The notes under the pieces are model-generated. The model saw nothing but the letters and a program-made list of their open reading frames with translations, searched no databases and was not told where the DNA came from. Of a stretch of DNA of 39,122 bases, positions 811-35,890 are shown piece after piece (the stretch's first letter is position 1; each line of letters opens with the position of its first letter). The position numbers and the translations under genes were made by a program. Source of the stretch: Candidatus Barnesiella excrementipullorum (GTDB lineage: Bacteria > Bacteroidota > Bacteroidia > Bacteroidales > Barnesiellaceae_A); contig DXFB01000160.1 of NCBI GenBank assembly GCA_019114665.1, forward strand, positions 1 to 39,122, in the 5' to 3' direction.

Positions 811-2748
811 TTATTTCTCCATCGTATTGACAACAAAATTGCGTATGATACACTCCGTGCGGCCGGCATTGCCCTTGGCCACGCGCAGACGCAACCGATG
901 CGGCTTGTTTTCGAGCTCGGTCTCAAACATATAGACCCAGGGCAGGTAAAGCCAGCTACTCCACTCGGTGTACGTATCCATTCTCTTATAAGGAGCCCCG
1001 TCGACACTATATTCGAGAGTGGCGGCATGAGGCCCTGCTACACAGAAGATACCCACAGCTGTACCCGTAAAATCGAAAGTGAGGACTTTACCGGGCTTAT
1101 CGGCAACCAGCATGGGCACATCTACAAATCCGGGACGTGTTTGCACCGCACTATCGGGTTGCCACGCCTCTATATAACTCCAACCGTTGCGATACTCGGC
1201 CCGACGTATATCTACGAAGCGGCCGTTGCAGTAGCTATAATCGTCGAGTTTGTCGGCAGGCAGGGCATGCGCCTTCAAGGTATCGCCGGGTGCGCAGCTC
1301 CACATCTCGTCGAAGAGCGAGGCTATCGCCGCGGCATAATACTTATGCCCCATCATGTGGGGATGCGTACCGCCGAACTCTTCCCACGTAAACTCACCGG
1401 CAGCCATGCGGTCGGCTATCTCATGCGCCAAGTCGATAGAAGGGATGGCATAGTGGTTTGCCACCCGTTCGTGATTGAGAATCACATCGGGTATCCGGCC
1501 TTCGGCATAATCTTCTATAAAGGGGTCGTAGATAAAATGCAGCATGATAATATCTACCTCGGGACAAGCCTCACGGGCATGACGCACCTCGCCCTCCATA
1601 CCCCGTACCTGCTCTATGTAGTCGAAGTGGTTGGTATCATCGTTCACCGCCGCCTCGACAAAAAGCAAGTCTATCTCGCCTTTCGACAAAACATCATTCT
1701 CTATACGAAAAGCACCGGGGGTGGTACCGGTAGAGGGGATACCCGCACATACAAAATCAAATTCGGTATAGGGGAAACGCTGCCTCAGTTGCTGCATGAC
1801 AAGGTTGTGCCAGCCCTCCATCTCGGTGATAGAGCCGCCCAAGAAAGCAACCCGTGCCTTGCGGCGATATTGCATCTTATGGAACGAATTACTCAACGAA
1901 CCGCGGTAACGGATATAGTGTTTCTCCTTCTCTCCCGGCTGGTGGCGGAGTATGAAGTCGACAACAGGTTCGGGATTTTCGAGGCTGTGCGGATGATGCC
2001 CCACACCGGGTTTCAGGATAAGCTCAACGGGAGCACCCAGGTCGCTGTAACGGTCACGCCACACCTTCATATTCTCATCATACGGCACCTCGGTATCGCT
2101 ATCGCCACACACCGCCATGACAGGGATATGTGCAGCGGCCATCCGCTGCAAAAGGTCGGGACGGAAGGCGGCCAACCGCTCGCCTTCGGCATCGGTATCG
2201 TCAATCCCCCACAATCGCAGAGCGTCGTTCCACAGATCGGCACGCTGCCGGCCCGGCCAGCTCAACAGATTGCACACCGGGGCATCGACATATATACAGG
2301 CAACAGCCGAAGGATTCCGCGCCGCCCATTGAAGGACAAAGAAACCGCCCCGGCTAAACCCTTCGAGCGTCGTCTTCGGCGAAAGCCCGAGAGAATCTAC
2401 GGCAAACCGATAGAATTTGTCACCGGCAAGAAGGGCCGAGGGAGAGCCGTAACCGTGGGTAAGGTCATAATAGACCACATGAAAACCCTCTTGGAGCAAG
2501 GCCTTGTCTACCGCATCGAAGGCACCGAAAAACGCAGGCCGCCATATCCACGGTGAGCCGTCGGCCACACTGTCGGGTGTGACGACAATCGCCTCGCGAC
2601 CCTCAAAAACGAAATCGTGTCTGCCGGGCATAGATAGGCACGAGGCAACGTCACCTTGTACGGTGACGCTGCCTGCCAAACATCCTACTGAAAACCTAAT
2701 AACGACTGCCAACAGCAGTACGCACTTTAACCGTTTCATCAAACGCAT
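811..2748 (-). CDS. secreted two-domain carbohydrate esterase (alpha/beta-hydrolase + SGNH/GDSL hydrolase + C-terminal beta-rich domain)
   Basis: 645-aa ORF with ATG at 2748 (alternative ATG at 2739, 'MKRLKCVLLLAVV'). The hydrophobic signal peptide has a possible lipobox 'FSVGC'. The N-terminal half has the nucleophile elbow 'GFSRGG' plus 'CGDSD' and 'GVGHHPH'. The middle has SGNH block I 'VAFLGGSITE', block III 'VEAAVNDD' and block V-like 'GGTHPH'. It starts 16 nt downstream of GH97. Confidence 0.75.
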   Translation of the reverse strand: MRLMKRLKCVLLLAVVIRFSVGCLAGSVTVQGDVASCLSMPGRHDFVFEGREAIVVTPDSVADGSPWIWRPAFFGAFDAVDKALLQEGFHVVYYDLTHGYGSPSALLAGDKFYRFAVDSLGLSPKTTLEGFSRGGFFVLQWAARNPSAVACIYVDAPVCNLLSWPGRQRADLWNDALRLWGIDDTDAEGERLAAFRPDLLQRMAAAHIPVMAVCGDSDTEVPYDENMKVWRDRYSDLGAPVELILKPGVGHHPHSLENPEPVVDFILRHQPGEKEKHYIRYRGSLSNSFHKMQYRRKARVAFLGGSITEMEGWHNLVMQQLRQRFPYTEFDFVCAGIPSTGTTPGAFRIENDVLSKGEIDLLFVEAAVNDDTNHFDYIEQVRGMEGEVRHAREACPEVDIIMLHFIYDPFIEDYAEGRIPDVILNHERVANHYAIPSIDLAHEIADRMAAGEFTWEEFGGTHPHMMGHKYYAAAIASLFDEMWSCAPGDTLKAHALPADKLDDYSYCNGRFVDIRRAEYRNGWSYIEAWQPDSAVQTRPGFVDVPMLVADKPGKVLTFDFTGTAVGIFCVAGPHAATLEYSVDGAPYKRMDTYTEWSSWLYLPWVYMFETELENKPHRLRLRVAKGNAGRTECIIRNFVVNTMEK

Positions 2749-2764
2749 TATTACTGCCGAGATA

Positions 2765-4747
2765 TTATTTTATCGGGGTGAATACCATCACGAAACCACC
2801 GCCCTGCGCCATCTCCATAGAAATAGTTTCGCCGGCAGCATATCTCTTCACCTCCCGTTTATAACGCGAGGCATCGGTATCGCTTTTCTTCACATCCTTG
2901 AATATCTCCACTTCATACTCGGTACCTTGCGGCAGGAACGACAGGTCGAATACTACATTGCGACGTGTCCAATCGTTGATACCGCCTACATACCATTTTT
3001 CGCCCGATTGGCGAGCTACAACGGCATATTCGCCTACTTTTGCCAATAGCGGCACCGTCTTGTCCCATACCGTGGGAACAGCCGACAAGAACTTCAATAC
3101 ATCGGGATACTTACGGTAGGCATCGGGCGAATCGGCCAGCATGGCAAACGGCGACTCGATTAACAAATAGAGTGCCAGGTCGTGGCAACGTGTACCCAAT
3201 GTCGAGGGCAAACCGGGGTCGACGGGTTTGAATTTCTCCCGTGTCACATTGCGCATAGAGCCGGGGGTGTAATCGGTTCCGCCACCCAACATGCGGGTGA
3301 AGATAAACTGCAACTGATATACGGGATTGCTGGTAGTATCCCACTTGGCACATTCGGCTCCGCGCATGGCCTCATAGGTGAGGATGTTGGGATAAGCGCG
3401 ATGTAAACCTGTGGGCTTGCTGCATCCGTGGAAATCTACCATCAGATGCCGCTCGGCACAGGCACGTGCCAACTCTTCATACTCGGGCATTACATCGGCA
3501 TCGTCGCGGTCGAAGAAGTCTATTTTCACACCCGCGGCTCCCCATGCAGCGATAGAGTCGAGGTAAACATGCTTGTTCTGGAAGAGCGTAGCGGCAACCG
3601 TCCAGAGCCATACGCCAACGTTCTTCTCCTTACCATAACGGATAACCTCCTTAATATCTACATTCTTGTTGAGGTCGGCATGATTAAAGACATTGCTCCA
3701 TCCGGCATCTACCAGCAAGTATTCGATACCATTCTCGGCGGCAAAGTCGATGTAATATTTATACAACTCGGTAGAGAGATTCGAGTCATCGAAAGGTGCA
3801 TCTTCGAGAATATGGCAGTGCCACCACTCCCAAGTCGCTTTTCCGGGACGAATCCAGTCGGTATCGGCGATTTGCTGCGGTTTGGCCAAGAGATATATAA
3901 TCTCGTTGTTGAGCAACGTACGGTCGTCGTCGGTAACAATCACGATACGCCAAGGGAAGGCATGGTCTCCGGCCGTGCGGGCGATGTACGGCTCACGCTC
4001 CTTCACTACGGTGATGAAATTACCCCAGCTACCCATCTCTATGCGTTTGGGATAGGCAGCCCAGTGCCCTTGCATCTTGCCGTCGGTCTTGCGCAGGTAA
4101 AGGCCGGGATAGTCGTGCAGGTCGGCCTCGGCCACAACAACCTTATAATGTTGCATTTTGTTATCGAACAACATAGGCGTAATGCCATACACACCCTCTT
4201 TGATGTCCGAAACGCCGTCATAGAGTTTGTGGCTCAACTCCCACGAGGTGTAGTTGTTCGTCTCGGGCAGAATCACGCCGGGGTCATCGGCAAAATCAAA
4301 TACGGCCGTCTCATCGGCAATCACCAACGAATCGGCAGGGGCACGCTCGCCGAGGAAACGATATGCCGCACCCTCATTATAAAGGCGGAAACATACGGCA
4401 TAACCGCCATCGAAAGAGAGTGTCAGCTCATTGTAGCAATCGGCAATCTCTTTATTTTTACCGAAGAGCGGATATACTTTCCCGTTATGCTCTTTCTTGT
4501 CGACCGACAAAAGGTTCGATGTACCGTTCCATACCTCGCCGTTTTGCAACGAAAGGGCTATGGGAGATGCATTGACTACGGCATTGCCGTCATAACTGAT
4601 AGCATACGACAGCGACGGTGCGGTAGTAACATTCATCTGCAAACGACCGTCGGGCGATGTCAACTCGTACTCAGCCGCACGGATGCCGGTTAAAGAACCG
4701 GCAACCATGGCAGCTGCGAGTGTTGTTATAAACAACATATTTTTCAT
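2765..4747 (-). CDS. glycoside hydrolase family 97 (alpha-glucosidase/alpha-galactosidase type), signal peptide, no T9SS tail
   Basis: 660-aa ORF. GH97 hallmarks are 'FPWRIVIVTDDDRTLLNNEIIYLLAKP', 'GIEYLLVDAGW', 'GVKIDFFDRDD' and 'DFHGCSKPTGLHRAYPNILTYEAMRGAE'. The N-terminus 'MKNMLFITTLAAAMVAGSLTGIRAAE' looks like an SPI signal. Confidence 0.9.
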   Translation of the reverse strand: MKNMLFITTLAAAMVAGSLTGIRAAEYELTSPDGRLQMNVTTAPSLSYAISYDGNAVVNASPIALSLQNGEVWNGTSNLLSVDKKEHNGKVYPLFGKNKEIADCYNELTLSFDGGYAVCFRLYNEGAAYRFLGERAPADSLVIADETAVFDFADDPGVILPETNNYTSWELSHKLYDGVSDIKEGVYGITPMLFDNKMQHYKVVVAEADLHDYPGLYLRKTDGKMQGHWAAYPKRIEMGSWGNFITVVKEREPYIARTAGDHAFPWRIVIVTDDDRTLLNNEIIYLLAKPQQIADTDWIRPGKATWEWWHCHILEDAPFDDSNLSTELYKYYIDFAAENGIEYLLVDAGWSNVFNHADLNKNVDIKEVIRYGKEKNVGVWLWTVAATLFQNKHVYLDSIAAWGAAGVKIDFFDRDDADVMPEYEELARACAERHLMVDFHGCSKPTGLHRAYPNILTYEAMRGAECAKWDTTSNPVYQLQFIFTRMLGGGTDYTPGSMRNVTREKFKPVDPGLPSTLGTRCHDLALYLLIESPFAMLADSPDAYRKYPDVLKFLSAVPTVWDKTVPLLAKVGEYAVVARQSGEKWYVGGINDWTRRNVVFDLSFLPQGTEYEVEIFKDVKKSDTDASRYKREVKRYAAGETISMEMAQGGGFVMVFTPIK

Positions 4748-4776
4748 AGTGTGTGTAATTAAGAGATATTGGAAAT

Positions 4777-7700
4777 TTATACCATGTTTACTTGTGCTCC
4801 TTGATGGTTGATATCAAGTGCCAACACTTCCGAGAGGAAATGATGCGCCTTGTCCATCTCGCCCAAACCGCGATAGCCCAATCCCATCACATAGTTGCAA
4901 TGGATGCGGTTGCGTTTGTTCAGGTCATCGTCCCAGATAGCCAGGTCGGGCAACGAAACGGCAAAGTAGTCGATGCGGCAGTTATCGAAAAGGTGCTTCT
5001 CGCCATGCTTGATAAGTTTGTTGAAGCGGCCTCTTGCTTTCGCCTCATCGCCCAGCTCGCGCCAGGCAAGACCTTGGAAGAAAATCTTGTCGGGTTGCTG
5101 GTCGTTATAGAAGAATGCCTGTTGGGGCTCGTCGGAGCCTATCGTGGCAATGGTGAAGCAACGATTGGCTTCATCGATGTTACCCAGCCCCTTGTTGGCC
5201 AGACCTTTGTAATACCATATATCGTTCTCTTCGGCATTTTTCAGCTTGCCCTCTCCGAGGTTATGCGGATAGGCATCGGTAGCTTTCAGCAACTGCAAAG
5301 CCTCCTCATAGCGGGCATCGGCAATCGCCTGCTTGGCAAGCTCTACATGGCACAATACATACTGGCCTGTGATTTTGCCTTCACCGCCCTCCCACGGGTG
5401 GAACTTGCGTGCGGCAATCATGCGGCGGGCTTCTTCGTAACGACCCAGCTGATTATAAAGCGTGATGCGTTCGATAGACAAGTCGTCGCGCTCCTCCACT
5501 TGCTGCAAGTGTTTTTCGAGGAAAGCAAGACGATTCTCATAGGAGTAACCGAGCTTTTTGTAGAGCTGGTCAAGCTCCATAAGGATACGTGCATCGGTGG
5601 TGTCGAGCGCATAAGCCTTTTCGAGCAGAATGCGGGCACGCTCCTTGTCGTTGCGCTTATTGTAATAAGCCAGGGCCAGGTTACGCCATACGGTAGGGAA
5701 GGTATCGTCGATGCTGGTCGAAAGCTCCCAGCACTCGACAGCCTCATCGTAGCGGCGTGCAGCATACCAGAAGTTACCCAACGCATAGGCAGCCTTAGAG
5801 CAGTGTCCGGCATTGAGACGGATGGCATCTTGCAGGATGTTTACCTCCTCGATGCGGTTGGGGAAGCAATAGCGGTGGTCGCAGGCATCTCCCTTGCGAT
5901 AATACTCCAATGCCTTTGCTTCATCGCCTTTGAGCGAGTAGAAATAACCTACGGCATAAGCAACGATGGGATAAACGTCGGTAGTGTGCTGCATATAATC
6001 GCACAACAGGGCTATCGCCTCATCATAACAGCCGGCCGAAGCAAAGTCGAGGGCATACTCTATATATCCGTGTGCCCAGCCGCGCATCATGGCGCGCAAC
6101 TCGTCCATGTCAGCAGCATTTCCGCTGATAAGATATTTTTCATACCGGCAACCCATATTGAAACGGTCTATGGCCAATGAGTCGTCGATAAGGCGCAAGG
6201 CTTCGGCTGTACGGCCCAACTTGCGCAAGAGGGTTGCCTTCAACTGACGAGCCTTGTGGTTGTGCCAGTTGCGTATGAGAGAACGCTCTACCCATTCGAG
6301 TGCATTGGCATAGTTGCCGCGCAGGGTGTCTATCTGTGCAATACCATAGTAGGCAGCATCTTGCCAAGCGGCATTCCACGTAGCTTTGAAGAAGGCTTCA
6401 TAAGCCTCGTCATACTTGCGTTGCATGAGGCAGCACCAGCCCAAGTTGTAATAGGGCTCACCATCGTACGGGTTGGGGTTGCGCTCGGTGAGCGTAGCTA
6501 TGGCCGTACGGAAATGAGGCTCGGCAAGTGCAAAGCAGCCCTTGCGCATATACAACAAGCCCATAGCGTTATTGCAACGCACATCGCCGGGCTCGCGGCG
6601 CAATGCCTCGCTATAATAATCCATAGGATTGTATGTGGCATGACGATATTGTTCGAGGTGCAATCCGGTGAGATAGAGTTGCTCGATAGAGGCAATCTCG
6701 GCCGGGTCTTTGGCAGCCTTGGCAGGGTCGGGAATCGGTTTTATCTCGGGCTTGTCGGCACGATATTCCAACAAGAGCTTGCCATCGGGGCGATAAACCC
6801 GGGTGATAAGGTTGTCTGGCGTGATGCCGGGAGCCGAGAAATCGTCGAGATAAGGCGTACGGGGCGAGCATTCGATAGTCTTGTCTATGTATGTCTTGCC
6901 GGAGGCATCGGTTACCACAACGTGCAAATCTTTCTCTACGCCGGTGGTATAAAGGATGATTTTACCGGCACCCTCGGCATCGAGCTCAACATTCAGAATA
7001 GCATCTTTCGAGGCATTCTTCACATATCCCACTTCACTGTAAGGCATGAAGTATTGTACCCACGATTTCTCCTCATAAGGTTGCAACCAGGAGAAGTCGG
7101 GCTGATTATCGGTATATACACCGGTCATAAGCTCGATGTACGGCCCGTCTTCATCGGTAAGGTTACGGTCCCAAGCCTGTCCGAAGTCGCCGCAACCCCA
7201 TGTCCATTGTTTCTTGCCGGGCGATACGTGGTGGTTGGCCACATGCAACAAACCGCCCTTGACATCTTCCTCGTACCCGCCTACAAAGTCGAAGCGTGAC
7301 TTTATCGCCATATACGACGTCGGGACGGGGATATTCTTATACTTCGATATATCTACACCGGCCGAATAGTCCTGTTTATAATATACACCGGTAGCTATGG
7401 GGAACGACGATACGTCGCGCTTGCCATGGTCGAATACGGCATTCACATCCGGTGGGAACACCGAGTGGTAGTGGTCGTTGACTACAACAGCCGGGTTTGC
7501 CCACCACAAGAAGGTTTGCGGGAACGGCGTGCGGTTGTAGATTCTCACTTTTATTTCGATGTAGGCCTTATCGGGATGCAACGTAAAGCCCTGCATACCC
7601 TTGGTACGGAACATTCGCTCTACCTCGCTGCACCACACCGTAACACTGCCATCGGGATTGTTCTCGATAGAATAGTCGGTAGGCAGATAGGTCGACGGGC

Positions 7701-8115
7701 GGTGATGCTGAGGCCAGTTAAACTCAATTCCACCCGAAATCCACGGTCCGGTAAGCCCTACCAAAGCCGGCTTTACGACTTGATTGTAGTAAACGAAATG
7801 GCGTTTTTTCACCTTGTCGTACGCCATGTGGATGCGACCGCCCAACTCGGGCAAAATCATCACCTTGATATATTCGTTTTCGAGGAAAAAGGCGTTGTAG
7901 GCTTTCTCCTTCTTCTCATCATAAATTTTCTCTATAACAGGATAGGGATAAACAGAGCCACAACTGCCCTGATAAACCCGCTTTTCGAGAAAGATAGGAT
8001 TTTTCTCCTCTGCACCTATTTCATAGGTAGGCAGCACGATTTCTTCCTGCCAGGCACGCACCTCGCCGGGAGTATTTACCGTACTCTTGATTAAATATTC
8101 TGTTATCTTTTCCAT
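4777..8115 (-). CDS. DUF5107 domain protein with long C-terminal TPR array, predicted cytoplasmic
   Basis: 1112-aa ORF with no signal peptide or TM segment. The N-terminal ~450 aa carries DUF5107-type signatures: 'ELGGRIHMAYD', 'GGIEFNWPQHHRPST' and 'HVANHHVSPGKKQWTWG'. The remainder consists of repeated TPR-like helical hairpins, for example 'VWRNLALAYYNKRNDKERARILLEKAYAL' and 'IWYYKGLANKGLGNIDEANRCFTIA'. Confidence 0.85.
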   Translation of the reverse strand: MEKITEYLIKSTVNTPGEVRAWQEEIVLPTYEIGAEEKNPIFLEKRVYQGSCGSVYPYPVIEKIYDEKKEKAYNAFFLENEYIKVMILPELGGRIHMAYDKVKKRHFVYYNQVVKPALVGLTGPWISGGIEFNWPQHHRPSTYLPTDYSIENNPDGSVTVWCSEVERMFRTKGMQGFTLHPDKAYIEIKVRIYNRTPFPQTFLWWANPAVVVNDHYHSVFPPDVNAVFDHGKRDVSSFPIATGVYYKQDYSAGVDISKYKNIPVPTSYMAIKSRFDFVGGYEEDVKGGLLHVANHHVSPGKKQWTWGCGDFGQAWDRNLTDEDGPYIELMTGVYTDNQPDFSWLQPYEEKSWVQYFMPYSEVGYVKNASKDAILNVELDAEGAGKIILYTTGVEKDLHVVVTDASGKTYIDKTIECSPRTPYLDDFSAPGITPDNLITRVYRPDGKLLLEYRADKPEIKPIPDPAKAAKDPAEIASIEQLYLTGLHLEQYRHATYNPMDYYSEALRREPGDVRCNNAMGLLYMRKGCFALAEPHFRTAIATLTERNPNPYDGEPYYNLGWCCLMQRKYDEAYEAFFKATWNAAWQDAAYYGIAQIDTLRGNYANALEWVERSLIRNWHNHKARQLKATLLRKLGRTAEALRLIDDSLAIDRFNMGCRYEKYLISGNAADMDELRAMMRGWAHGYIEYALDFASAGCYDEAIALLCDYMQHTTDVYPIVAYAVGYFYSLKGDEAKALEYYRKGDACDHRYCFPNRIEEVNILQDAIRLNAGHCSKAAYALGNFWYAARRYDEAVECWELSTSIDDTFPTVWRNLALAYYNKRNDKERARILLEKAYALDTTDARILMELDQLYKKLGYSYENRLAFLEKHLQQVEERDDLSIERITLYNQLGRYEEARRMIAARKFHPWEGGEGKITGQYVLCHVELAKQAIADARYEEALQLLKATDAYPHNLGEGKLKNAEENDIWYYKGLANKGLGNIDEANRCFTIATIGSDEPQQAFFYNDQQPDKIFFQGLAWRELGDEAKARGRFNKLIKHGEKHLFDNCRIDYFAVSLPDLAIWDDDLNKRNRIHCNYVMGLGYRGLGEMDKAHHFLSEVLALDINHQGAQVNMV

Positions 8116-8133
8116 AGTGAATGATATGTGTGA

Positions 8134-9519
8134 TTATTTGATTAATTCCTTTTCCAATTCTTCGAGACTCTTTCCCTTCGTCTCGGGGAGCGTGCGCACG
8201 ATGAAGAGACCTCCTACCAGGCAAATAATGCCATAGAGCCAGAATGTCCACGCTGCGCCCAATCCGCTATTGAGTATCGGGAACGTATAGGTAAGTACAA
8301 AACAAGCTGCCCACAAAGCAAAGGTGCATACCGACATGGCTATACCGCGGATGCGGTTGGGGAATATCTCAGAAATAATTACCCACATGACCGTAGCAAG
8401 CGTCATGGCATAACATGCGATGGCAAGTACTACAATCACCAGCAGCAGCACACCGGTAAAGTGCATGTAATAGAACATACCCATCAGCGCATATATCGCC
8501 GCCAGGCCGAAAGCCCCTATCAGAGCAAGTTTCTTCCTTCCCCAGCGGTCGACGACAAACATGGCAATCACCGTGAAGACTACATTGGTAATGCCCGTCA
8601 CTACAATATTCATCAAGACATCCGAGATGCCGTACCCGGCCGACATGAAAATCTCTTGCGCATAGTTGAATATGACATTGATACCGCACCACTGCTGCAA
8701 AACGGCCATTACCACACCTATCAGCAACACCTTGCGCATAGAGGGGTGGAAAAGCTGACGGAAACCGCCTTGTCCCGTTTCCGAGGCAAGCGCAACCTTG
8801 ATGGCGTCCATCTCCTTAGCAGCTACCTCGGGGCCGGCAATGCGGGTAAAAATCTGCAAAGCCTTGTCGGTCTGTCCCACCGAGGCCAACCACCGGGGAC
8901 TCTCGGGCAAGAAGAATGCCAAAACGAAAAACAGCACCGACGGCACTATCATAGCCCAGAACATCCATCTCCAACCCATCTGTCCGTTCCACGAATAGAG
9001 TATCATCTCGGCCGTGGCACCTTCGGGCACCGGCTCGGCGATAAGCCAATTGACAATCTGAGCCGACAAGATACCCAGCACTACCGTAAGCTGGTTGATG
9101 GCAACAAACCTGCCGCGCATATGGGTAGGTGCTATCTCGGCGATATACATGGGCGACAGACTCGATGCGACACCGATAGCGAAACCGCCTATAAGACGAA
9201 AGATTGTAAACATAAGGAAGGTACTTGCAAATCCCGTACCCCATGCCGTACAAATAAACATGCCGGCCGCCAGAATAAGAATAGGCTTACGGCCAAACTT
9301 GTCACTGAAACGTCCGGCGGTAAGCGCTCCCACAAGACAACCTATAAGCGCGCTGCTCATAGCCCAGCCTTGCATGGAGGGATTGTCGGCAATACCGAAA
9401 AATTGTTCGTAAAACGGTTTCGCTCCTCCAATTACGACCCAGTCATAACCAAAGAGCAAACCACCCATAGCAGAAATAATAGCTATGCCAAAAAGGAATG
9501 CATTGGAATGTGTCTTCAT
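8134..9519 (-). CDS. MFS sugar porter family transporter (sugar/H+ symporter, XylE/GalP-like)
   Basis: 461-aa ORF. Sugar-porter signatures are 'GGLLFGYDWVVIGGA', 'GRFSDKFGRK', 'PESPRWL', 'VDRWGRKK' and 'PETKGKSLEELE'. The hydrophobicity pattern fits 12 TM segments. Confidence 0.9.
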   Translation of the reverse strand: MKTHSNAFLFGIAIISAMGGLLFGYDWVVIGGAKPFYEQFFGIADNPSMQGWAMSSALIGCLVGALTAGRFSDKFGRKPILILAAGMFICTAWGTGFASTFLMFTIFRLIGGFAIGVASSLSPMYIAEIAPTHMRGRFVAINQLTVVLGILSAQIVNWLIAEPVPEGATAEMILYSWNGQMGWRWMFWAMIVPSVLFFVLAFFLPESPRWLASVGQTDKALQIFTRIAGPEVAAKEMDAIKVALASETGQGGFRQLFHPSMRKVLLIGVVMAVLQQWCGINVIFNYAQEIFMSAGYGISDVLMNIVVTGITNVVFTVIAMFVVDRWGRKKLALIGAFGLAAIYALMGMFYYMHFTGVLLLVIVVLAIACYAMTLATVMWVIISEIFPNRIRGIAMSVCTFALWAACFVLTYTFPILNSGLGAAWTFWLYGIICLVGGLFIVRTLPETKGKSLEELEKELIK

Positions 9520-9548: not shown

Positions 9549-9587
9549 CAAAGGAAAGCATTTGCAGCGGCATGGAAAATAGAAAAA
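9549..9587 (-). promoter_or_regulatory. putative activator-dependent promoter of the MFS/DUF5107/GH97/esterase operon
   Basis: Minus-strand reading gives TTTTTCTATTTT (9587-9576), then 19 nt, then TTCCTTTG (9556-9549), a one-off match to the Bacteroides -7 consensus TAnnTTTG. The box ends 29 nt before the ATG at 9519. The same architecture recurs at 33171-33209. Confidence 0.45.
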
Positions 9588-9599
9588 ATTGTTATCGGG

Positions 9600-9617
9600 A
9601 TGGACAATCTTACTTTT
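9600..9617. promoter_or_regulatory. 18-nt conserved box ATGGACAATCTTACTTTT (copy 1), candidate regulator binding site
   Basis: Identical 18/18 to 33222-33239 in the same orientation. It lies in the divergent AraC/MFS control region and keeps the same 12-nt spacing to the T-rich block as copy 2. Confidence 0.55.
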
Positions 9618-9645
9618 TTACCTTGTTTTTTGCAAAATTCGTGTT

Positions 9646-9653
9646 TACCTTTG
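9646..9653 (+). promoter_or_regulatory. -7 box (TACCTTTG) of a putative AraC-gene promoter
   Basis: Exact match to the Bacteroides TAnnTTTG consensus. It ends 26 nt upstream of the AraC ATG at 9680, and a TTTG lies upstream at 9629-9632. Confidence 0.5.
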
Positions 9654-9679
9654 TAAAAACCTCACCAACTTCTCCTGCC

Positions 9680-10567
9680 ATGCCCAAAATACGCGAAGGT
9701 TTCAAAGGTCAGCGAACGATTATAATACCCTCGTTCATAATAGAAAAAATAAAGCAAAATCCGTTGGGAAAGATGCTCTACATTACCGACATCGGGTTCT
9801 ACCCTACGGCATCGTACCACTACCGGGAACGCACCGCCGATGAAGCCACAGAAAATGTACTCATTTACTGTGTAAGGGGGAAAGGATGGTACTCTCTGGA
9901 CAAGAAGCGCTATCATGTGACCCAAAACCAGTTCTTCATTCTTCCCGAGCACGAAGCCCACGCCTACGGGAGCCTCGAAGACGACCCGTGGAGCATCTAT
10001 TGGCTGCACTTCAAAGGCGACATGGCCGCCTTCTTCCGCAAAGGATTCGACGTACCCACACACGTATCCTCCCCGAACAACCAGCCTTTGGAGACACAGC
10101 TGCATCTCTTTGAGGAGATATACAACACGCTCGACAACGGCTTTGGCAACAACAACATCATGTATGCCACTACAAGCCTGTTCCACTTCCTGGGGCTCAT
10201 GAAATATGTGGGAGAATATATCGAAAACAAAAACGAGAGAAGGCATGTAGATGCAACCGACCTTGCCATCGCTTTCATGCAAGAGAACATCAACCGCAAG
10301 CTCTCGCTCGGTGAAATAGCCGAGGAGGTAAATCTGTCTGTCTCCTACTTCTCCAACCTGTTTCTGAAAAAGACAGGCTTCTCGCCCTTACAGTACCTGA
10401 ACATGCTGCGCATCCGGAAAGCCTGCCATTATCTCGACTTCACCAATATGAAAATCAACCAGATAAGCCCGTTGGTAGGAATCGACGACACCTTCTATTT
10501 TTCCCGTCTGTTTACCAAAATCATGGGTATATCGCCCTCGGAGTACCGGGCCCACAAGAAAGGATAG
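9680..10567 (+). CDS. AraC family transcriptional regulator (N-terminal cupin-type ligand domain + C-terminal dual HTH)
   Basis: Start chosen at 'MPKIREGFKGQRTIIIP' (ATG 9680) rather than the listed 9572, because the extra 36 aa translate promoter DNA. Cupin-like segment: 'NVLIYCVRGKGWYSL...FFILPEHEAHAYG'. AraC HTH segments: 'LSLGEIAEEVNLSVSYFSNLFLKKTGFSPLQYLNMLRIRKACHYL' and 'FYFSRLFTKIMGISPSEY'. Confidence 0.85.
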   Translation: MPKIREGFKGQRTIIIPSFIIEKIKQNPLGKMLYITDIGFYPTASYHYRERTADEATENVLIYCVRGKGWYSLDKKRYHVTQNQFFILPEHEAHAYGSLEDDPWSIYWLHFKGDMAAFFRKGFDVPTHVSSPNNQPLETQLHLFEEIYNTLDNGFGNNNIMYATTSLFHFLGLMKYVGEYIENKNERRHVDATDLAIAFMQENINRKLSLGEIAEEVNLSVSYFSNLFLKKTGFSPLQYLNMLRIRKACHYLDFTNMKINQISPLVGIDDTFYFSRLFTKIMGISPSEYRAHKKG

Positions 10568-19647: not shown

Positions 19648-21915
19648 TTATTTGATGAACTTATAAGCAATGCTGCTACCTTCGGTATCCATACCGCGAT
19701 AGAGATAAACACCTTTACCCAGCGCAGCCACATCTACTTCGTTGTGAAGGCCATGCACCTGCAACTGGCAGACACCAGCCACATCATATACCACGCTGTC
19801 GACAACCGATGCATTTCCTGCAAATCGCAGCATCTGGGAGGCCGCATCATAGTAGCACGCTGTTGCATCGCCGCTTACCGCAGCCACACGGCTGTCATCA
19901 TAAGGATATATCTTGTAAAGGAGAGCATCGTAACGATGCACTACAACCGTCCATGTATCATCACTTATATCCTTGTCGCCGGTCCACAATTCGTGGAACA
20001 TATACTTCACGCCGGGAGTAAGCCCCAAACGACCGAAATCGAAAACACAATCGCGTTTCTGTATCGTGTAGTTAAAAGCGGCCACATAAAGCGTATCACC
20101 CACATTATACATAAACATATCGGCAGCTCCATCACCGACAACACTCTCTACGGGCTTGAAAGCCTTCGTCACACGAGCCACTTCATTGACATCACGATTG
20201 GTGGTGAACATACGTGCCCGTTCTTTGGCTGTTTCAGAACCTTCGTTGCTGAAATCGTCACCCAAGATAAAAATACCTGTAATGACCGATGAGGTTACCC
20301 TTGCGCGGTTTTCCATATACGTAGCGCCATTGAGCACCACGTGGTCGGCATCGTTATAAGAATATACATGGTCGAGCCACCAGCCATAGGTAAGCGAGTT
20401 GAGGGTATATTCGGTCTCCGAGATGCTGCGGTAAGAGTCGCAACCGATACGGCGGCTATGAGCATAATTGGCCGGGAAGAGGGGGGCAATAGAGAGGTTG
20501 ATAAACATGCGGTCGCCCACCAGCTCATTGAGGTACTGCATTCCTTGCGAATAGGCTTGGATGCCGGTAAACACCTCGGGGTCGTAGTGCTTGCCCTCTA
20601 ACGCGCCGTGCGACATGAAATCTATCTTGACAAACTCATATCCCCAATCGAGGAACTGCCCAAACTGATATGCCATGCGAGCCCGCGTAGCAGGATGCGT
20701 GGGGTCGAGAGCATATCCGCCGTCTATCTCCTGCACCTTGCCGTTGTTGTCATAGAGGTAACAATCGCCATATTTATATTGATTATTTGTTCCGGGAACA
20801 TATACATCGGGATTTTTACCCCACTCGGTAAAGGGTGTCCAGTAGATACCTGCCTTTTGGCCGGCTTGGTTGCAACGGCGCACAAACGACATGTGATTGC
20901 GGATAGAGAAGCCATAATCCCAGAAAGAATCAAGTCCTATAAAAACAGTACTGTCGGCATTGAGGAAACCGGCAGGTTGCAGTTCATTGGCAAAGAAATC
21001 TGAAACGGCACATGCCTTGTCGTAGTTGATATCGTCTTGTATCGCACCCCAACTGTTCCAACCGAAGGGTTTGGCAAACTTGCAAGCAAGAGGCGGTGCC
21101 ACCGAGGCGCAAAGGTCGGCATAAGTCTCCATACCGGTACGCCAGTCATCGAAGTATCCTACCATCACCATAGGCGATTTGACCGTCTTGCCAACCACTG
21201 CGCCATGCGGAAGCACATCGTGAGTAATCTCGTATGATACAGCACCTCCATAAACCGTCAGCGACTGCAAGTCGGCACTGCCCGAAGTCTCGGCAGCGAT
21301 ACCCGTTTTCCATACATCGTGCTCTATGGCTCCCGTCACCAATCCTTGACGGGTGTCGGCATTAAAGAGAGCCGATACATTGAAACTCAATGGATGCGAA
21401 GTGCCAAAAGAGGTGGTCTTGTAACGCACCCACATGTCGTTATCGAAGGGTACAAAGAGCGCATAATTGGGTTCTCCGTCTAACACCTGCGCAGCAGCAC
21501 CTGCATGCACGGGAGCCATATAATTGATAGTCAGATCCTCATCGGATGTGACAGAAAACTGGGTGAGGACAAAATCCTTATCCTCATATATATTGTATGA
21601 ATGTGTAATCTCTGTTATAGGTTGGGCCGTTGTACGCCCCTTTACAACAAGCTGTACGCCTGTACCGGTCTCGTCGCTCAACTGTGAACTCGAAATCGTT
21701 ATATCGGTAAGAGATGAATAAGAGAGTCTGTTGTCATTAAGCCCCCAAACGGCTTCGTTCGAAGAAAGAATCACACGTTCGCCACGCGAGAGAGTAGCCT
21801 TTCCGTCGGCACCTACCGCAAGTGTCCAATCGCCGGCCGTGATGGTCTCTTGTGCATGTGTATGCAACGACAAACAAGAGAGTAAGAAAAAAGATAATAA
21901 CAAGGAATTTCTCAT
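19648..21915 (-). CDS. clan GH-D alpha-galactosidase-like enzyme (GH27/GH36-related) with N-terminal beta-rich domain and T9SS C-terminal sorting domain
   Basis: Start chosen at 'MRNSLLLSFFLLSCLSLHTHAQE' (ATG 21915), not the listed 21975. The barrel entry motif 'KPFGWNSWGA' is GH27-like. 'YALDPTHPATRA' and 'YEFVKIDFMSHG' resemble clan-D nucleophile-region motifs. The C-terminus 'VVYDVAGVCQLQV...GKGVYLYRGMDTEGSSIAYKFIK' is CTD-like. Confidence 0.7.
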   Translation of the reverse strand: MRNSLLLSFFLLSCLSLHTHAQETITAGDWTLAVGADGKATLSRGERVILSSNEAVWGLNDNRLSYSSLTDITISSSQLSDETGTGVQLVVKGRTTAQPITEITHSYNIYEDKDFVLTQFSVTSDEDLTINYMAPVHAGAAAQVLDGEPNYALFVPFDNDMWVRYKTTSFGTSHPLSFNVSALFNADTRQGLVTGAIEHDVWKTGIAAETSGSADLQSLTVYGGAVSYEITHDVLPHGAVVGKTVKSPMVMVGYFDDWRTGMETYADLCASVAPPLACKFAKPFGWNSWGAIQDDINYDKACAVSDFFANELQPAGFLNADSTVFIGLDSFWDYGFSIRNHMSFVRRCNQAGQKAGIYWTPFTEWGKNPDVYVPGTNNQYKYGDCYLYDNNGKVQEIDGGYALDPTHPATRARMAYQFGQFLDWGYEFVKIDFMSHGALEGKHYDPEVFTGIQAYSQGMQYLNELVGDRMFINLSIAPLFPANYAHSRRIGCDSYRSISETEYTLNSLTYGWWLDHVYSYNDADHVVLNGATYMENRARVTSSVITGIFILGDDFSNEGSETAKERARMFTTNRDVNEVARVTKAFKPVESVVGDGAADMFMYNVGDTLYVAAFNYTIQKRDCVFDFGRLGLTPGVKYMFHELWTGDKDISDDTWTVVVHRYDALLYKIYPYDDSRVAAVSGDATACYYDAASQMLRFAGNASVVDSVVYDVAGVCQLQVHGLHNEVDVAALGKGVYLYRGMDTEGSSIAYKFIK

Positions 21916-21967
21916 AGCTAAACAGATAAAGATATAGAAAAGAGGATATCTTCCAAGATGAAATATG

Positions 21968-22001
21968 AAATCCACGCGGCGCGGACACGCCGCGTGGATT
22001 T
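21968..22001 (-). terminator. GC-rich intrinsic terminator/attenuator after the FG-GAP gene
   Basis: AAATCCACGCGGCG / CGCCGCGTGGATTT form a perfect 14-bp stem with a 6-nt loop. A T-rich run follows on the minus strand (TTTCATATTTCATCTT). Confidence 0.7.
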
Positions 22002-22083: not shown

Positions 22084-23937
22084 TCAGAGAACTACTTTGT
22101 CAACAGCTACACCGTCAGCAGCATTTACTTTCACTACATAAACGCCACCTTGCAAAGCAACCTCGGCAACACCGTTGGCTGCGCAGTTACCGGCAGCAAC
22201 TTGTGCACCATTTACGCTGTAAACTGCATACGAAACAACGGCATCGCTACCATTAACGATGTTGATTTCGCCATTAGCCACAAACGTCTTAACGCTCTCG
22301 CTCTCTACAGCATTCACACCAGCTGTTGCATTGGTAAAGGTGCTACCGCAGAAAGAGTTGTCGACAGCTTGTACACCAAACGTATAATCGTTGATGTTCA
22401 TACCTTTGAAACGATACGAGAGAGTGTTGAGCAAAGCATTCGTACGGTTTACTTTGAGGAAACCGGTGTTAATGTCGGCAGGTGACAAGCAGAAAATCTT
22501 ACCGTCGTTGCCTTTGGCATAAACGTTGTAACGAAGAGCCTCAGAAGGAGTCGTATCATCGGTAGCAGCTTGCCATGTAAGAACAACATCGGCACCCTCT
22601 TGTTTAACGCTGGTTACCTGCGGTGCAGTGGGAGCTGCATTAGCAGCGAAAGTACCGGTATTTACAACCAAATAGTTGGGCCAAGTAGGATTCTCGGGCG
22701 TATCACCACCACCGTCGCGATAACCGAAGAGTGAAATATCGAGCTTGCCATCGTTGTTGTAATCGACGAAAGTGATGTCACCGTCACGGGCACGGGCTGC
22801 ATCGGGATATACCTCTGTGGCATCTGTAAATGAGTTGTCGCCGTTGTTGAGGAAAAGTTTAACGGGGCTTCCGTTGCACCAGCCGATAGACATATAGTCC
22901 ATCCAACCGTCGTTGTTGATATCGCCGAAACCTACCGAGCTGTTAGAACCAGCCAAGCCGGTAACTGTCTCATCGAGAGAGGTAAATGATGTGCCGTCGC
23001 CATTGTTGATATAAACGCGGGCTACATGACCCCAGCTCAATGTAGAGGCGCTGCGGCCTGTCTCTATGATATCCATCTTGCCATCGTTGTTGACATCGAT
23101 GGGGAAGAGTGTACCTTGGTGCGAACCAAAACCGAAACCTGTTACAGCTGTAAAGGTCATGTCGCCATCGTTGAGGTAAACGGTAGGCGTACCGGCATCA
23201 CCCATATCATCGTTGTAACCGCCGATAACGAAGTCCATCAAACCATCGTTGTTGAAGTCGGCTGCATAAACGGTCGTACCGCTCATGGGGATGAACTCGG
23301 GATTAGACATCAGCTCGAAAGAACCATTTTGCGTATTGCGGAACAAACCGATATAACGCATAGTGGTCTCGAAAGGAGCATAACCGCTTACGAGCAAGTC
23401 GGTCCAACCGTCATTGTCGAAATCGGCAGCGGCGAAGAGGATACCCTTGCAATCTTGTCCGTCGGGAGAGAGTTGCGGGAGCAAATCTTCGATATCATAA
23501 TTTTCTACCAAATTATAATTGCCCGAAGGACCTTCGTTGTGGAAGAAATAAGTCATTGAGGTAGAAGCCTCGTTGCCATCCATTCTACCGGCAACAATCA
23601 GGTCGAGACAACCATCATTGTCATAATCAATCCAAGCGGCAGCTCCTACCGAAAGCTGAGCAAAAAACAAGTCGGTTTCTTCTGTAACGTTCGTGAAAGT
23701 GCCGTCTGTTTCCTGACGATACAAACCTACGTGCGGGCCTTGTCCCTGACCGGCTACGATAAAATAGTCCATCAGACCGTCGTTGTTATAGTCGGCCCAT
23801 GCCAACGTACCGGCAGCCGTCATTTCAGAAGCAAAAGCAACATCAGTTTTCACCTCGAAAGAGGGTGCTACCGGAGCCGCCATAGCTACCATGGCAGTTC
23901 CTACTGCCAAAGAAGCGAGTAATTGTCTTTTTTTCAT
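22084..23937 (-). CDS. FG-GAP/VCBS repeat beta-propeller protein with Fn3-like module and T9SS C-terminal sorting domain
   Basis: Start chosen at 'MKKRQLLASLAVGTAMVAMA' (ATG 23937). There are seven DxNxDGxxD-type repeats: 'WADYNNDGLMDYFIVAG', 'WIDYDNDGCLDLIVAG', 'AADFDNDGWTDLLVSG', 'AADFNNDGLMDFVIGG', 'PIDVNNDGKMDIIETG', 'FGDINNDGWMDYMSIG' and 'FVDYNNDGKLDISLFG'. 'PTAPQVTSVKQEGADVVLTWQAATDD' is Fn3-like. The tail 'YAVYSVNGAQV...GGVYVVKVNAADGVAVDKVVL' is CTD-like. Confidence 0.8.
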   Translation of the reverse strand: MKKRQLLASLAVGTAMVAMAAPVAPSFEVKTDVAFASEMTAAGTLAWADYNNDGLMDYFIVAGQGQGPHVGLYRQETDGTFTNVTEETDLFFAQLSVGAAAWIDYDNDGCLDLIVAGRMDGNEASTSMTYFFHNEGPSGNYNLVENYDIEDLLPQLSPDGQDCKGILFAAADFDNDGWTDLLVSGYAPFETTMRYIGLFRNTQNGSFELMSNPEFIPMSGTTVYAADFNNDGLMDFVIGGYNDDMGDAGTPTVYLNDGDMTFTAVTGFGFGSHQGTLFPIDVNNDGKMDIIETGRSASTLSWGHVARVYINNGDGTSFTSLDETVTGLAGSNSSVGFGDINNDGWMDYMSIGWCNGSPVKLFLNNGDNSFTDATEVYPDAARARDGDITFVDYNNDGKLDISLFGYRDGGGDTPENPTWPNYLVVNTGTFAANAAPTAPQVTSVKQEGADVVLTWQAATDDTTPSEALRYNVYAKGNDGKIFCLSPADINTGFLKVNRTNALLNTLSYRFKGMNINDYTFGVQAVDNSFCGSTFTNATAGVNAVESESVKTFVANGEINIVNGSDAVVSYAVYSVNGAQVAAGNCAANGVAEVALQGGVYVVKVNAADGVAVDKVVL

Positions 23938-23978
23938 AATGAATAGAATTAAAATGTTAAACAAATTATCTAAGAAAT

Positions 23979-24011
23979 CCATGCGGGTCAATCACGGAGA
24001 GACCCGCATGG
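23979..24011 (-). other. intergenic stem-loop downstream of the SusD-like gene
   Basis: CCATGCGGGTC / GACCCGCATGG form an 11-bp stem with an 11-nt loop, beginning 20 nt after the SusD-like stop. ATTTCTTAGATAATTTGTTT follows on the minus strand. It may be a partial terminator or an RNA-stability element. Confidence 0.5.
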
Positions 24012-24030
24012 CGATACAGAGAAGAAGTTA

Positions 24031-25599
24031 TTACTTCAAGCCGGGATTTTGGTCGGCCTCGGTAATAAATTCGTTTTGCGTAATTTCAGTGTATGGAATG
24101 GGGAAACGCTTGTGAGCATCGGTCATGTTGCCCGACTCGGCAGCCCACGGGTTACGCAATGTTGTGTACTCCACATATTTGCCGGTGCGGAGCAGGTCGT
24201 AACGGCGCCACATCTCGCCCATCAACTCGCGCATACGCTCGTCGAGAATCTTTGTGCGGAACTCATCGGCTCCCATACCGGGATTCCAAGCCATTTCGGC
24301 CGGCAGGTTCCAGTTCCAGGCACGAGCACGCACCTGATTGTTTACTACATTGACAGCCTCTGAGGTGTTGCCTGTCTCGTTGAGAGCCTCGGCATAGAGC
24401 AGAAGGACATCGGCATAACGCAGGTAATAGGTATTCTTACCACAGTTCCAGAAAGTTTGGTCGAGCTCGACAATGCGCTCATCCTCGTATTTCTTGATAT
24501 GCGGGTCTAACTGGTCGTCACCGAAACCGGGAGTTGCCGAAGAAGCCTGTCCGTTCCAGGTAAACTCATAGCGCAAGCTGGCATCTTTACGGGTATCGCC
24601 ATCTTCCCACACACCGCCATTGGCAACGGTGCTGTAAGCATATTGTGTAGGAACGGCCTCGTCGTAACCGCCGAAGGGGCAGCGTTGGTTCCAACCCGAA
24701 GCGGCACGCGTACCGCAGTACCATTGCAGGTAGTTGAGGTCGGTAGTGTTGTTGAAGTAGAATGTCCACAACGACTCTTGGTCACAAGAAACATTGGGGT
24801 CCCACAAGTCGCTATAATTAGTCATCAGTGAGAAACCGCCATTATTGACTATATCTTGCAAAAGTTCGAGAGCCAGGTCGTAACGACGATATTCAGAAGT
24901 CGGTTCGGCTGCCATATATACTTTGGCAAGCATAGCTTTTGCCGTCCACGTGGTGGGGATACGGCCGTCGCTTTGACGTGTATCGGGCAAATAAGTCATG
25001 GCTTTCGTATAGAGATCTACCATTTTCTTATATACCTCATTGAGCGATTTTCTGCCCGAGAGTTGCACCGAACCATCTTCGGCAATCGTTGTCAAAGGAA
25101 TTTCTCCCCAGTAGAATGTAAGCTCAAAATAAGCCGTTGCCTCATAGAAAGCAGCTTGTCCAATGTATGACTTCAACTCGGTTTGACGCGACTCTTCAAC
25201 GGTGCTGAGTTGCGGTTCGAGATAATGGAGAGCTTGAGCGGCTTGTACAGCCACGGGGAAACGCAAGTTCCAGAGCTCGGCAAAATAGGGGTTCTCGCTG
25301 TTATAAAGGGGCGAGAAGTCGTCGAATGCGCCTTTTGTAAGGTCATTGTGTTGGGCTTCACCTATTTTCAGCTCATCGGTACCGTGATTTACGCGCAAAC
25401 CTTCGCGCGAGATGCGGCACTTGCGCAAGTTGGAGTACAATCCGTTAAGATAGGGCTGAATGTTGTCCATATCCGAAAGGACTTGCTCTATGGAGAGCGA
25501 CGTTTGCGGCTCTTCAATCAGGAAATCGCTGCAAGCAGGCATAGCAGCCAAGCCTACTGCCAAAGCGAAAATATTTAATTTCTTAATAACCGATTTCAT
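24031..25599 (-). CDS. SusD/RagB family nutrient-binding outer-membrane lipoprotein
   Basis: Start chosen at 'MKSVIKKLNIFALAVGLAAMPACSD' (ATG 25599), which carries a lipobox Cys. The protein is Trp/Tyr-rich with TPR-like SusD segments: 'YRRYDLALELLQDIV', 'LRYADVLLLYAEALNE' and 'ERMRELMGEMWRRYDLLR'. It starts 20 nt downstream of the SusC-like gene. Confidence 0.9.
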   Translation of the reverse strand: MKSVIKKLNIFALAVGLAAMPACSDFLIEEPQTSLSIEQVLSDMDNIQPYLNGLYSNLRKCRISREGLRVNHGTDELKIGEAQHNDLTKGAFDDFSPLYNSENPYFAELWNLRFPVAVQAAQALHYLEPQLSTVEESRQTELKSYIGQAAFYEATAYFELTFYWGEIPLTTIAEDGSVQLSGRKSLNEVYKKMVDLYTKAMTYLPDTRQSDGRIPTTWTAKAMLAKVYMAAEPTSEYRRYDLALELLQDIVNNGGFSLMTNYSDLWDPNVSCDQESLWTFYFNNTTDLNYLQWYCGTRAASGWNQRCPFGGYDEAVPTQYAYSTVANGGVWEDGDTRKDASLRYEFTWNGQASSATPGFGDDQLDPHIKKYEDERIVELDQTFWNCGKNTYYLRYADVLLLYAEALNETGNTSEAVNVVNNQVRARAWNWNLPAEMAWNPGMGADEFRTKILDERMRELMGEMWRRYDLLRTGKYVEYTTLRNPWAAESGNMTDAHKRFPIPYTEITQNEFITEADQNPGLK

Positions 25600-25619
25600 A
25601 ATGGTATAGTATTTAAGGA

Positions 25620-28691: not shown

Positions 28692-28703
28692 GATAAATTG
28701 GTA

Positions 28704-30938: not shown

Positions 30939-30943
30939 AACAA

Positions 30944-33121: not shown

Positions 33122-33170
33122 AGTATTAGTTAATTAATTTGTGAATTCTCAAGCGCAGTATTAGACAATG

Positions 33171-33209
33171 CAAAGTAAACCAGAGGCGACAGTAATAAAA
33201 ATAGAGAAA
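33171..33209 (-). promoter_or_regulatory. putative activator-dependent promoter of the GH36-GH97-SusC/D operon
   Basis: Minus-strand reading gives TTTCTCTATTTT (33209-33198), then 19 nt, then TTACTTTG (33178-33171). The box ends 49 nt before the GH36 ATG at 33121. The block spacing is the same as at 9549-9587. Confidence 0.45.
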
Positions 33210-33221
33210 CCAACTATTCGC

Positions 33222-33239
33222 ATGGACAATCTTACTTTT
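33222..33239. promoter_or_regulatory. 18-nt conserved box ATGGACAATCTTACTTTT (copy 2)
   Basis: Identical 18/18 to 9600-9617. It lies in the 193-nt GH95/GH36 spacer. Confidence 0.55.
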
Positions 33240-33314
33240 ATTGCTTCTTACTCCTACATATTATTTTGTTTTAGCTATCTGCAAGTTACATATTATAGAG
33301 CTGTATCGCGTTTT

Positions 33315-35705: not shown

Positions 35706-35761
35706 TATCATAGTATAGTAAAAGATTAAACGCAGGACGTATCGCAAATGTGATGTCGCTG

Positions 35762-35769
35762 CAAAAATA
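35762..35769 (-). promoter_or_regulatory. -7 box (TATTTTTG on the minus strand) of a putative GH95 promoter
   Basis: The plus strand reads CAAAAATA, so the minus strand is an exact match to TAnnTTTG. It lies 50-56 nt upstream of the candidate GH95 start codons. Confidence 0.45.
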
Positions 35770-35855
35770 GACCCTACTATACTACTAATAATAAAACAAT
35801 CGCAGCAAAGAATTGCACTTATGTCGCAAAACGGCTCTCTCCACGGTGTTATAGC

Positions 35856-35890
35856 ACATTTGTTATATTTACCGATACATTTGTTATATT
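35856..35890. repeat. tandem direct repeat ACATTTGTTATATT x2 with 21-nt period, candidate operator
   Basis: Copies at 35856-35869 and 35877-35890 are identical 14/14. A third TGTTATA core lies at 35847-35853. The repeat sits between the HTCS stop (35915) and the putative GH95 promoter. Confidence 0.6.

Follow-up and report, generated by a model that had tools for sequence, protein, structure and literature searches.

A conserved 21-bp direct repeat probably places two carbohydrate-utilisation operons of a Barnesiella-like genome under one AraC-family regulator

The window, by which we mean the whole 39,122-nucleotide stretch of DNA analysed here, has 51% G+C and is a Bacteroidota polysaccharide utilisation locus (PUL). 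A previous reading, made from the letters alone (the sequence-only reading), had named an MFS sugar porter, DUF5107, GH36, SusC/D, AraC and HTCS genes, and all of these identities were confirmed by Pfam. The genes that matter for the argument are as follows.

811–9519, minus strand: operon 1, encoding the MFS sugar porter (8134–9519), a DUF5107-TPR protein (4777–8115), GH97 (2765–4747) and an esterase (811–2748), from Pfam
9680–10567, plus strand: AraC-family regulator, the proposed binder, from Pfam and from the N-terminus and length of its homologues
22084–33121, minus strand: operon 2, encoding GH36 (30944–33121), GH97 (28704–30938), SusC (25620–28691), SusD (24031–25644) and an FG-GAP protein (22084–23991), from Pfam
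33315–35747, minus strand: GH95, between the HTCS gene and the second copy of the box described below
35915–39106, minus strand: HTCS, its N-terminus cut off by the end of the window

Genes in operon 1 are separated by 16–29 bp, and their order is kept in five of the compared loci, among others. Operon 2 has gaps of 5, 12 and 39 bp and an overlap between SusC and SusD. Past operon 2, the minus strand continues with a Melibiase_C protein, a galactose mutarotase, a BspA-type LRR protein, GH2 and GH38 (to 10571), the last of these being convergent with the plus-strand AraC gene. The Melibiase_C protein (775 aa, 19648–21975, minus strand) has that weak match alone and no NCBIfam match; together with its neighbour, the FG-GAP protein at 22084–23991 on the minus strand, it recurs in three orthologous PULs.

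The DUF5107-TPR protein (1112 aa, 4777–8115, minus strand) has no signal peptide and is predicted to be cytoplasmic, and its gene appears in every case to be co-transcribed with that of the MFS porter. Over the N-terminal 480 aa it is 65–86% identical across Bacteroidota (Echinicola, Flavobacterium, Niastella and others), a conservation that is enzyme-like. The only sequence match in the PDB was 5cd6, an unannotated ‘TPR-domain containing protein’, and an AlphaFold2 model of the DUF5107 domain (mean pLDDT 55.7) was too poor for a fold search.

The AraC-family protein, called as an ORF at 9572–10567, matches HTH_AraC twice, HTH_18, AraC_binding and Cupin_2 in Pfam, and it therefore combines a cupin ligand domain with two HTH motifs. 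Its homologues measure 295 aa and have the same N-terminus, from which we place the true start at the ATG of position 9680 (MPKIREGFKGQR...) instead of at 9572, where the called ORF begins. Between this gene and the MFS gene lies a 160-bp divergent control region that contains the first copy of an 18-nt box; the second copy lies upstream of GH36. The elements of these promoters are listed below.

9549–9556, minus strand: -7-like box TTCCTTTG of the MFS promoter, 22 nt past TCTAT and 29 nt ahead of the ATG at 9519
9579–9592, minus strand: promoter-proximal (weak) half-site ACAATTTTTTCTAT upstream of MFS, in which TTTTCTAT repeats TTGTCCAT 21 bp downstream
9600–9617, minus strand: box copy 1, the promoter-distal (strong) half-site AAAAGTAAGATTGTCCAT, with its core GTAAGATTGTCCAT at 9613–9600; the exact 18-mer, found in all orthologous AraC/MFS intergenic regions
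9646–9653, plus strand: canonical -7 box TACCTTTG, read from the sequence as that of the AraC gene's own promoter; its complement CAAAGRTA is a conserved island
33171–33178, minus strand: -7-like box TTACTTTG of the GH36 promoter, 22 nt past TCTAT and 49 nt ahead of the ATG at 33121
33201–33214, minus strand: proximal half-site GTTGGTTTCTCTAT upstream of GH36, at the same 21-bp repeat
33222–33239, minus strand: box copy 2, the distal half-site upstream of GH36; the exact 18-mer, in a whole site that scores 52.7 bits

Written on the plus strand, both copies (9600–9617 and 33222–33239) read ATGGACAATCTTACTTTT. They are the only matches in the 39-kb window at up to three mismatches, where 0.02 would be expected, and none of 100 shuffled windows contained two or more matches of the 18-mer. 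With a position weight matrix (PWM) built from related sites, the whole site at the first copy scored 59.5 bits, and no further match of at least 12 bits was found within the window beyond the two sites. Read on the minus strand, each box is followed by 12 nt and a T-rich block (TTTTTCTATTTT at 9587–9576 and TTTCTCTATTTT at 33209–33198), and 19 nt past that block come TTCCTTTG-C (9556–9549, written whole TTCCTTTGC) and TTACTTTG-C (33178–33171, written whole TTACTTTGC). All coordinates, spacings and distances given in the sequence-only reading proved correct on recheck. The two stretches, each of about 70 nt, agree in three islands alone (18/18, 11/12 and 8/9) and have diverged in the spacers.

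Other readings of the same letters were discarded. No Rfam family matched the window at the gathering score, which rules out the box as a known RNA element. A small-ORF start (M-D-N-L-T-F, plus strand) was rejected because it is out of frame with the AraC gene and is followed by stops or antisense coding, and also because the conserved unit is a DNA repeat. The sequence TAATATGTA, which occurs twice upstream of box 2 at a 32-bp spacing, showed no excess over chance.

The 18-mer is the well-conserved, promoter-distal half of a tandem direct repeat, with an overall consensus of AGTAAnATWRTCCAT for the distal half and a weaker ...TTnTCTAT for the proximal half. At every locus, including both window copies, the half-sites start exactly 21 bp apart (TTGTCCAT versus TTTTCTAT). 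When 16-mers from 68 unique sites were compared with their own flanking sequence, the self-match reached 9.94 of 16 positions at offset 21 versus 3.1–5.5 at other offsets between 8 and 35, and it still peaked at offset 21 (5.87 of 11 versus 2.3–4.2) when the TCCAT/TCTAT pentamers were left out. The repeat is near perfect at GH2 promoters of the B. nordii group, where GTAAGATTATCCAT-N7-GTAAGATTATCTAT places near-perfect 14-mers 21 bp apart, and its form in environmental lineages is TAGTAATATAATCCAT / TAGTAATATATTCTAT. An AraC/XylS operator is likewise built as a direct repeat, with half-sites of about 17 bp lying on one face of the helix and their centres about 21 bp, or two helical turns, apart.

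The repeat is also held at a fixed distance from the core promoter. In 59 of the 68 unique sites, the -7-like box has its TTTG exactly 26 nt past TCTAT and itself starts 22 nt past it, and spacings shifted by 1–3 nt were seen in 0–1 of the 68. Such rigid phasing is what an activator that contacts RNA polymerase requires. The consensus of the -7-like box is TTnCTTTG, and its commonest 8-mer is TTACTTTG (22/68). Bacteroides housekeeping promoters of the sigma-ABfr type carry TTTG at -33 and TAnnTTTG at -7. The sequence-only reading had remarked that both window boxes deviate from this at position 2, and the T found there (TTACTTTG, TTCCTTTG) turns out to be a feature of the whole family, the canonical TAnnTTTG occurring in few of the 68 sites. 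At the -33 position no TTTG element was found, the four bases past TCTAT being mostly TTTT, TTTA, TTCT or TTTC across the 68 sites, and such a non-consensus -33 fits an activator-dependent promoter. The T-rich block had been read as -33-like; a T-run does occupy the place expected of a -33 element (9578–9576 in copy 1, directly after the proximal half-site at 9579–9592), but most of the block belongs to the second half-site (TTnTCTAT). With conventional Bacteroides numbering of the -7 box, relative to a predicted transcription start, the operator would span roughly -73 to -35, and its weak half would abut the -33 position.

Comparison across genomes showed that this architecture is widespread. 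We retrieved six AraC orthologues by protein alone (59–83% identity, including 83, 73, 66, 63 and 59%), and all six retain the divergent pairing of AraC with MFS-DUF5107. In the six intergenic regions the box, TCTAT and TTTG are kept and the remainder diverges, TCTAT being invariant; the conserved islands follow each other as the AraC -7 box, AAAAAGTAAGATTRTCCAT, TTYTCTAT 13 nt on and TTACTTTG 22 nt on. The box is thus present upstream of orthologous MFS-DUF5107 operons in related genomes, a comparison that the sequence-only reading had proposed. The same architecture precedes GH36, GH2, GH97 and GH95 genes in Bacteroidales, Sphingobacteriaceae and environmental Bacteroidota. A scan with a degenerate pattern, using one genome per species, returned 36 stretches, of which about 30 were in Bacteroidota and had the full architecture including the -7 box, which is absent from the pattern; the others were scattered in other phyla, in about the number that a rough estimate gives for chance matches.

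At the 64 unique sites outside the window, the downstream gene encodes an MFS porter (29), GH36 (8), GH97 (4), a SusC-like protein (4), GH2 (3), galactose mutarotase (3), GH95 (2) or DUF5107 (1), and at 10 sites it is unknown or lies at a contig edge. Genomes of B. nordii, B. salyersiae, Bacteroides HRGM_3638 and Barnesiella CALUJY01 have two to three sites each, and the box is also present in Parabacteroides sp. Marseille-P3160. The closest genomes were those of an uncultured Barnesiella sp. (AraC 95% and GH36 96% identical) and of the uncultured Porphyromonadaceae MAG UMGS48 (AraC and MFS 96%), and in the closest one available the strict pattern matched the same two promoters and no others. 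An equivalent of box copy 2 is kept in loci L032, L124 (45.1 bits) and L126 (21.9 bits). Sphingobacteriaceae show the order AraC-[box]-GH95-GH36, with the box past the AraC gene on the same strand.

Two observations from this survey stand apart. In B. nordii, B. salyersiae, Bacteroides HRGM_3638 and an uncultured Bacteroides, a divergent GH2 / GH97-FG-GAP control region contains operators facing both ways, and the GH2-side site, with two almost identical half-sites, is the clearest display of the repeat. Additionally, a contig binned as Coprobacillus sp. CAG:698 has a Bacteroides-type GH36 promoter with the box, nearly identical to that of an uncultured Bacteroides; it probably comes from a Bacteroides and was mis-binned into a Firmicutes MAG.

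The distribution of the sites points to the adjacent regulator. A homologue of the window AraC protein (36–96% identity) lies within 2.5 kb of 38 of the 64 unique non-window sites and is divergent in 36 of these 38, whereas just 3 of the 64 lie in a locus with an HTCS-like gene. We also assembled, without reference to the motif, 80 AraC-homologue loci from metagenomes (699 kb), in which homologues at 46–55% identity had a site of at least 20 bits in 19 of 26 loci, versus none in five shuffles of the 699 kb. In 18 of the 19 the site is in the AraC/MFS gap and in the MFS orientation, and in the remaining one it precedes an MFS gene located at the cluster's far end. No full HTCS occurred among these 46–55% loci, a short HTCS-like match of 28% in a single locus being the nearest to one. 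We consider it likely, with a probability of about three in four, that the box is the strong distal half of an activator operator of the AraC I1-I2 type for the regulator at 9680–10567, and that both operons belong to one regulon, since the same operator stands ahead of the MFS-DUF5107-GH97-esterase and the GH36-GH97-SusC-SusD operons. The core of the sequence-only reading, an upstream activator site that is common to the two operons, keeps a constant distance from the -7 box and unites them in one regulon, is supported by these data and reinforced by conservation across many genomes.

Co-occurrence of site and AraC gene holds across genomes with one exception, a human-gut Bacteroides clade of AraC homologues (57–61% identity; loci L005, L044, L050–L075 and L102), in which the AraC/GH36 intergenic region has no box. 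TTTGAG-containing repeats are found there instead, for example ATTTTGAGGGTAT ... ATTTGAGTAGGGAT ... TTTTTGAGC. We found no recognition-helix changes that would explain the loss, the helices being nearly unchanged. In B. nordii-like members of the same clade, an AraC-mutarotase-DUF5107-MFS cluster carries boxes of 49–57 bits at its far end, at the MFS promoter, and B. nordii, B. salyersiae and related genomes also have strong boxes at promoters of GH36 and GH2/GH97; the missing boxes of the clade may likewise lie outside the loci examined.

This exception, the 26 of 64 sites that have no AraC homologue within 2.5 kb and the many AraC paralogues of Bacteroidota genomes would suit a genuine operator bound by a factor encoded elsewhere, either a paralogous AraC-family protein or a global carbohydrate regulator, with the adjacency of the AraC gene being incidental. 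We regard this as unlikely: the divergent AraC/box arrangement persists from Barnesiella-like genomes to a Flavobacteriaceae MAG (Pricia) and environmental lineages, over protein identities of 36–96%, sites distant from an AraC gene look as extra regulon members are expected to look, and CRP-type dimers bind palindromes, unlike the direct repeat seen here.

Assuming that the adjacent AraC protein does bind, it might mainly repress, or the site might serve AraC autoregulation only. The distal edge of the operator lies about 28 nt upstream of the AraC -7 box, so that the distal half-site overlaps the -33 region of the AraC promoter, and both AraC and MelR repress their own promoters. However, the rigid 22-nt spacing is to the -7 box of the target gene and not to that of AraC, on whose side the spacing varies by a few nucleotides and alignments need gaps. 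The site is also found at promoters with no AraC gene nearby, such as those of GH36 and GH2, and it lies upstream of the -33 region, not over the -7 box or the start site. A primarily repressive or autoregulatory role thus seems quite improbable.

The sequence-only reading had left two candidates for the binding protein, the adjacent AraC regulator and the AraC-type output domain of the HTCS. The latter is encoded two genes upstream of box copy 2, and HTCS motifs have been predicted as direct repeats with a mean spacing of 21 bp (PMC3878776), which means that geometry cannot choose the binder, but distribution can. Next to HTCS orthologues of 71, 65 and 61% identity (in L124, L125 and L126), the HTCS-GH95-GH36 synteny is kept, and the HTCS/GH95 intergenic region has kept different repeats, AAYAAATGT. 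The AraC box precedes GH36 in two of these three loci (45.1 and 21.9 bits); in L125 the GH95-GH36 gap is 26 bp and has no box, although in this genome the AraC/MFS promoter still has one. The box was accordingly not a motif conserved beside HTCS orthologues and lost or changed with them. Moreover, the DNA-binding domains of the AraC and HTCS proteins are just 34% identical over 53 aa. Taken together, the distribution (including the 3 of 64 sites above), the HTCS repeat and the domain divergence attribute the box to the AraC protein and give the HTCS an operator of its own, and binding of the box by the HTCS output domain is very improbable. The proposal of a duplicated promoter fares worst, and a relic of recent segment duplication in this genome with no shared regulator can hardly be upheld: two stretches of about 70 nt do share one layout in one genome, but only the functional islands match, their spacers have diverged and dozens of unrelated genomes, distant taxa among them, have these islands too, which contradicts such a relic and indicates independent operator copies.

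In the window itself, the HTCS/GH95 region contains AATATAACAAATGT twice on the minus strand, at 35877–35890 and 35856–35869, the copies being 14/14 identical with a 21-bp period. With the HTCS stop codon just before it, this repeat (35856–35890) stands upstream of GH95; after it come GCGACATAAGTGCAA and a canonical -7 box, TATTTTTG (~35763–35770). By sequence, the AATATAACAAATGT / AAYAAATGT repeat is a candidate HTCS operator, and the PUL is predicted to be under HTCS control in addition to that of the AraC protein. A scan of 33000–36000 revealed no terminator-like hairpin between GH95 and GH36; sigma-70 matches in the same interval were discarded as meaningless for Bacteroidota. The lack of a GH95/GH36 hairpin, along with the one orthologous locus that has no separate GH36 promoter, suggests a dual route to the SusC/D core, which is probably reached both by HTCS-driven read-through and from an AraC-dependent internal promoter.

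Returning to the AraC operator, a plausible mechanism can be drawn from AraC at I1-I2. The cupin domain would bind a cytoplasmic sugar, upon which a dimer of the regulator would occupy both half-sites and recruit RNA polymerase, leading to activation. The effector is probably galactose or an alpha-galactoside product imported by the MFS porter, a guess made from the gene content of the regulon: a sugar porter, the alpha-galactosidase families GH36 and GH97, GH95, GH2 and galactose mutarotase. The operator at the MFS promoter lies just upstream of the regulator's own divergent promoter, an arrangement that would allow autoregulation. A more tentative extension, possible but on the whole doubtful, is that a single SusC/D operon receives two inputs, from a periplasmic HTCS at the GH95 promoter with read-through and from a cytoplasmic AraC at the internal GH36 promoter, forming a feed-forward loop in which an imported breakdown product reinforces the PUL; AraC-MFS-DUF5107 would then be an ancient, phylum-wide module for uptake and sensing, with DUF5107 an enzyme acting on the imported sugar.

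Such a system has close parallels in E. coli. AraC at araI (I1-I2) of pBAD likewise has a cupin sugar-binding domain and two HTH motifs. Its operator, like the one predicted here, is made of two direct-repeat half-sites about 21 bp apart, the strong one distal and the weak one proximal and next to the -35 element (here the predicted -33 position), with the regulator gene divergent from the target operon across a common control region. In contrast, the half-site sequence is unrelated and the promoter here is of the Bacteroides type (-7 TAnnTTTG-like), and no counterpart of the distant O2-type looping site of AraC was noticed. MelR, which controls melAB in melibiose use, is also an AraC-family activator that is encoded divergently from its target operon and acts on an alpha-galactosidase and a sugar porter, and its target promoter has direct-repeat sites, one overlapping the -35 region; however, MelR acts together with CRP and from four or five 18-bp sites, and the regulon described here also takes in a SusC/D outer-membrane system. 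The window protein is an orthologue of neither: it scores 97.6 bits against the NCBIfam AraC equivalog (cut-off 208) and 39 bits against MelR (cut-off 253), although its HTH region alone resembles MelR.

Within Bacteroidota, RhaR (BT3768) of B. thetaiotaomicron is the sole AraC-family member among the non-HTCS regulons reconstructed by comparative genomics in Bacteroides (PMC3878776); it too is a sugar regulator, but its sugar (rhamnose), regulon and motif differ. The family of the window AraC is absent from the 31 regulons of that study (PMC3878776). The operators predicted for HTCS proteins of Bacteroides PULs resemble the one described here: they precede PUL operons, repeat directly at a mean spacing of 21 bp and are recognised through an AraC-type HTH output domain (PMC3878776), and one has been footprinted for BT4124 (PMC13292587). 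The box differs in that it does not co-occur with HTCS genes, and in this PUL a separate candidate repeat (35856–35890) goes with the HTCS. We found no description of the motif or of the regulator family in the literature on AraC proteins with alpha-galactosidase, raffinose or melibiose, on GH36 with GH97, or on DUF5107.

By analogy, then, the regulatory logic is ordinary, working like AraC/pBAD and thematically like MelR/melAB. More interesting are the breadth of conservation, the likely dual control of SusC/D and the constant pairing with the uncharacterised DUF5107, which is the most constant target whose function is uncharacterised. Descriptions of PUL regulation in Bacteroidota usually centre on HTCS, SusR and ECF-sigma/anti-sigma systems, and cytoplasmic one-component regulators are poorly mapped. 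Our analysis supplies a predicted operator, with consensus, geometry and coordinates, and a candidate regulator for it, in a regulon (MFS porter, DUF5107, GH36, GH97, GH2, GH95 and galactose mutarotase) that is conserved from gut Barnesiella-like bacteria and Bacteroides to soil Sphingobacteriaceae, and in which one SusC/D operon may combine periplasmic with cytoplasmic sensing.

The motif also helps annotation, as it explains over-extended calls of AraC ORFs. On the AraC strand the operator supplies ATG, through the CAT of TCCAT and a second CAT at 9572–9574, and these false upstream ATGs lead gene callers to extend the ORF to 313–331 aa versus 295. Over-long calls of 331, 321 and 326 aa were seen in three of the retrieved proteins, and two further loci are affected as well. 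In Pricia sp., the apparent true start codon of AraC (MDNPTLKEGF...) is itself overlapped by the box.
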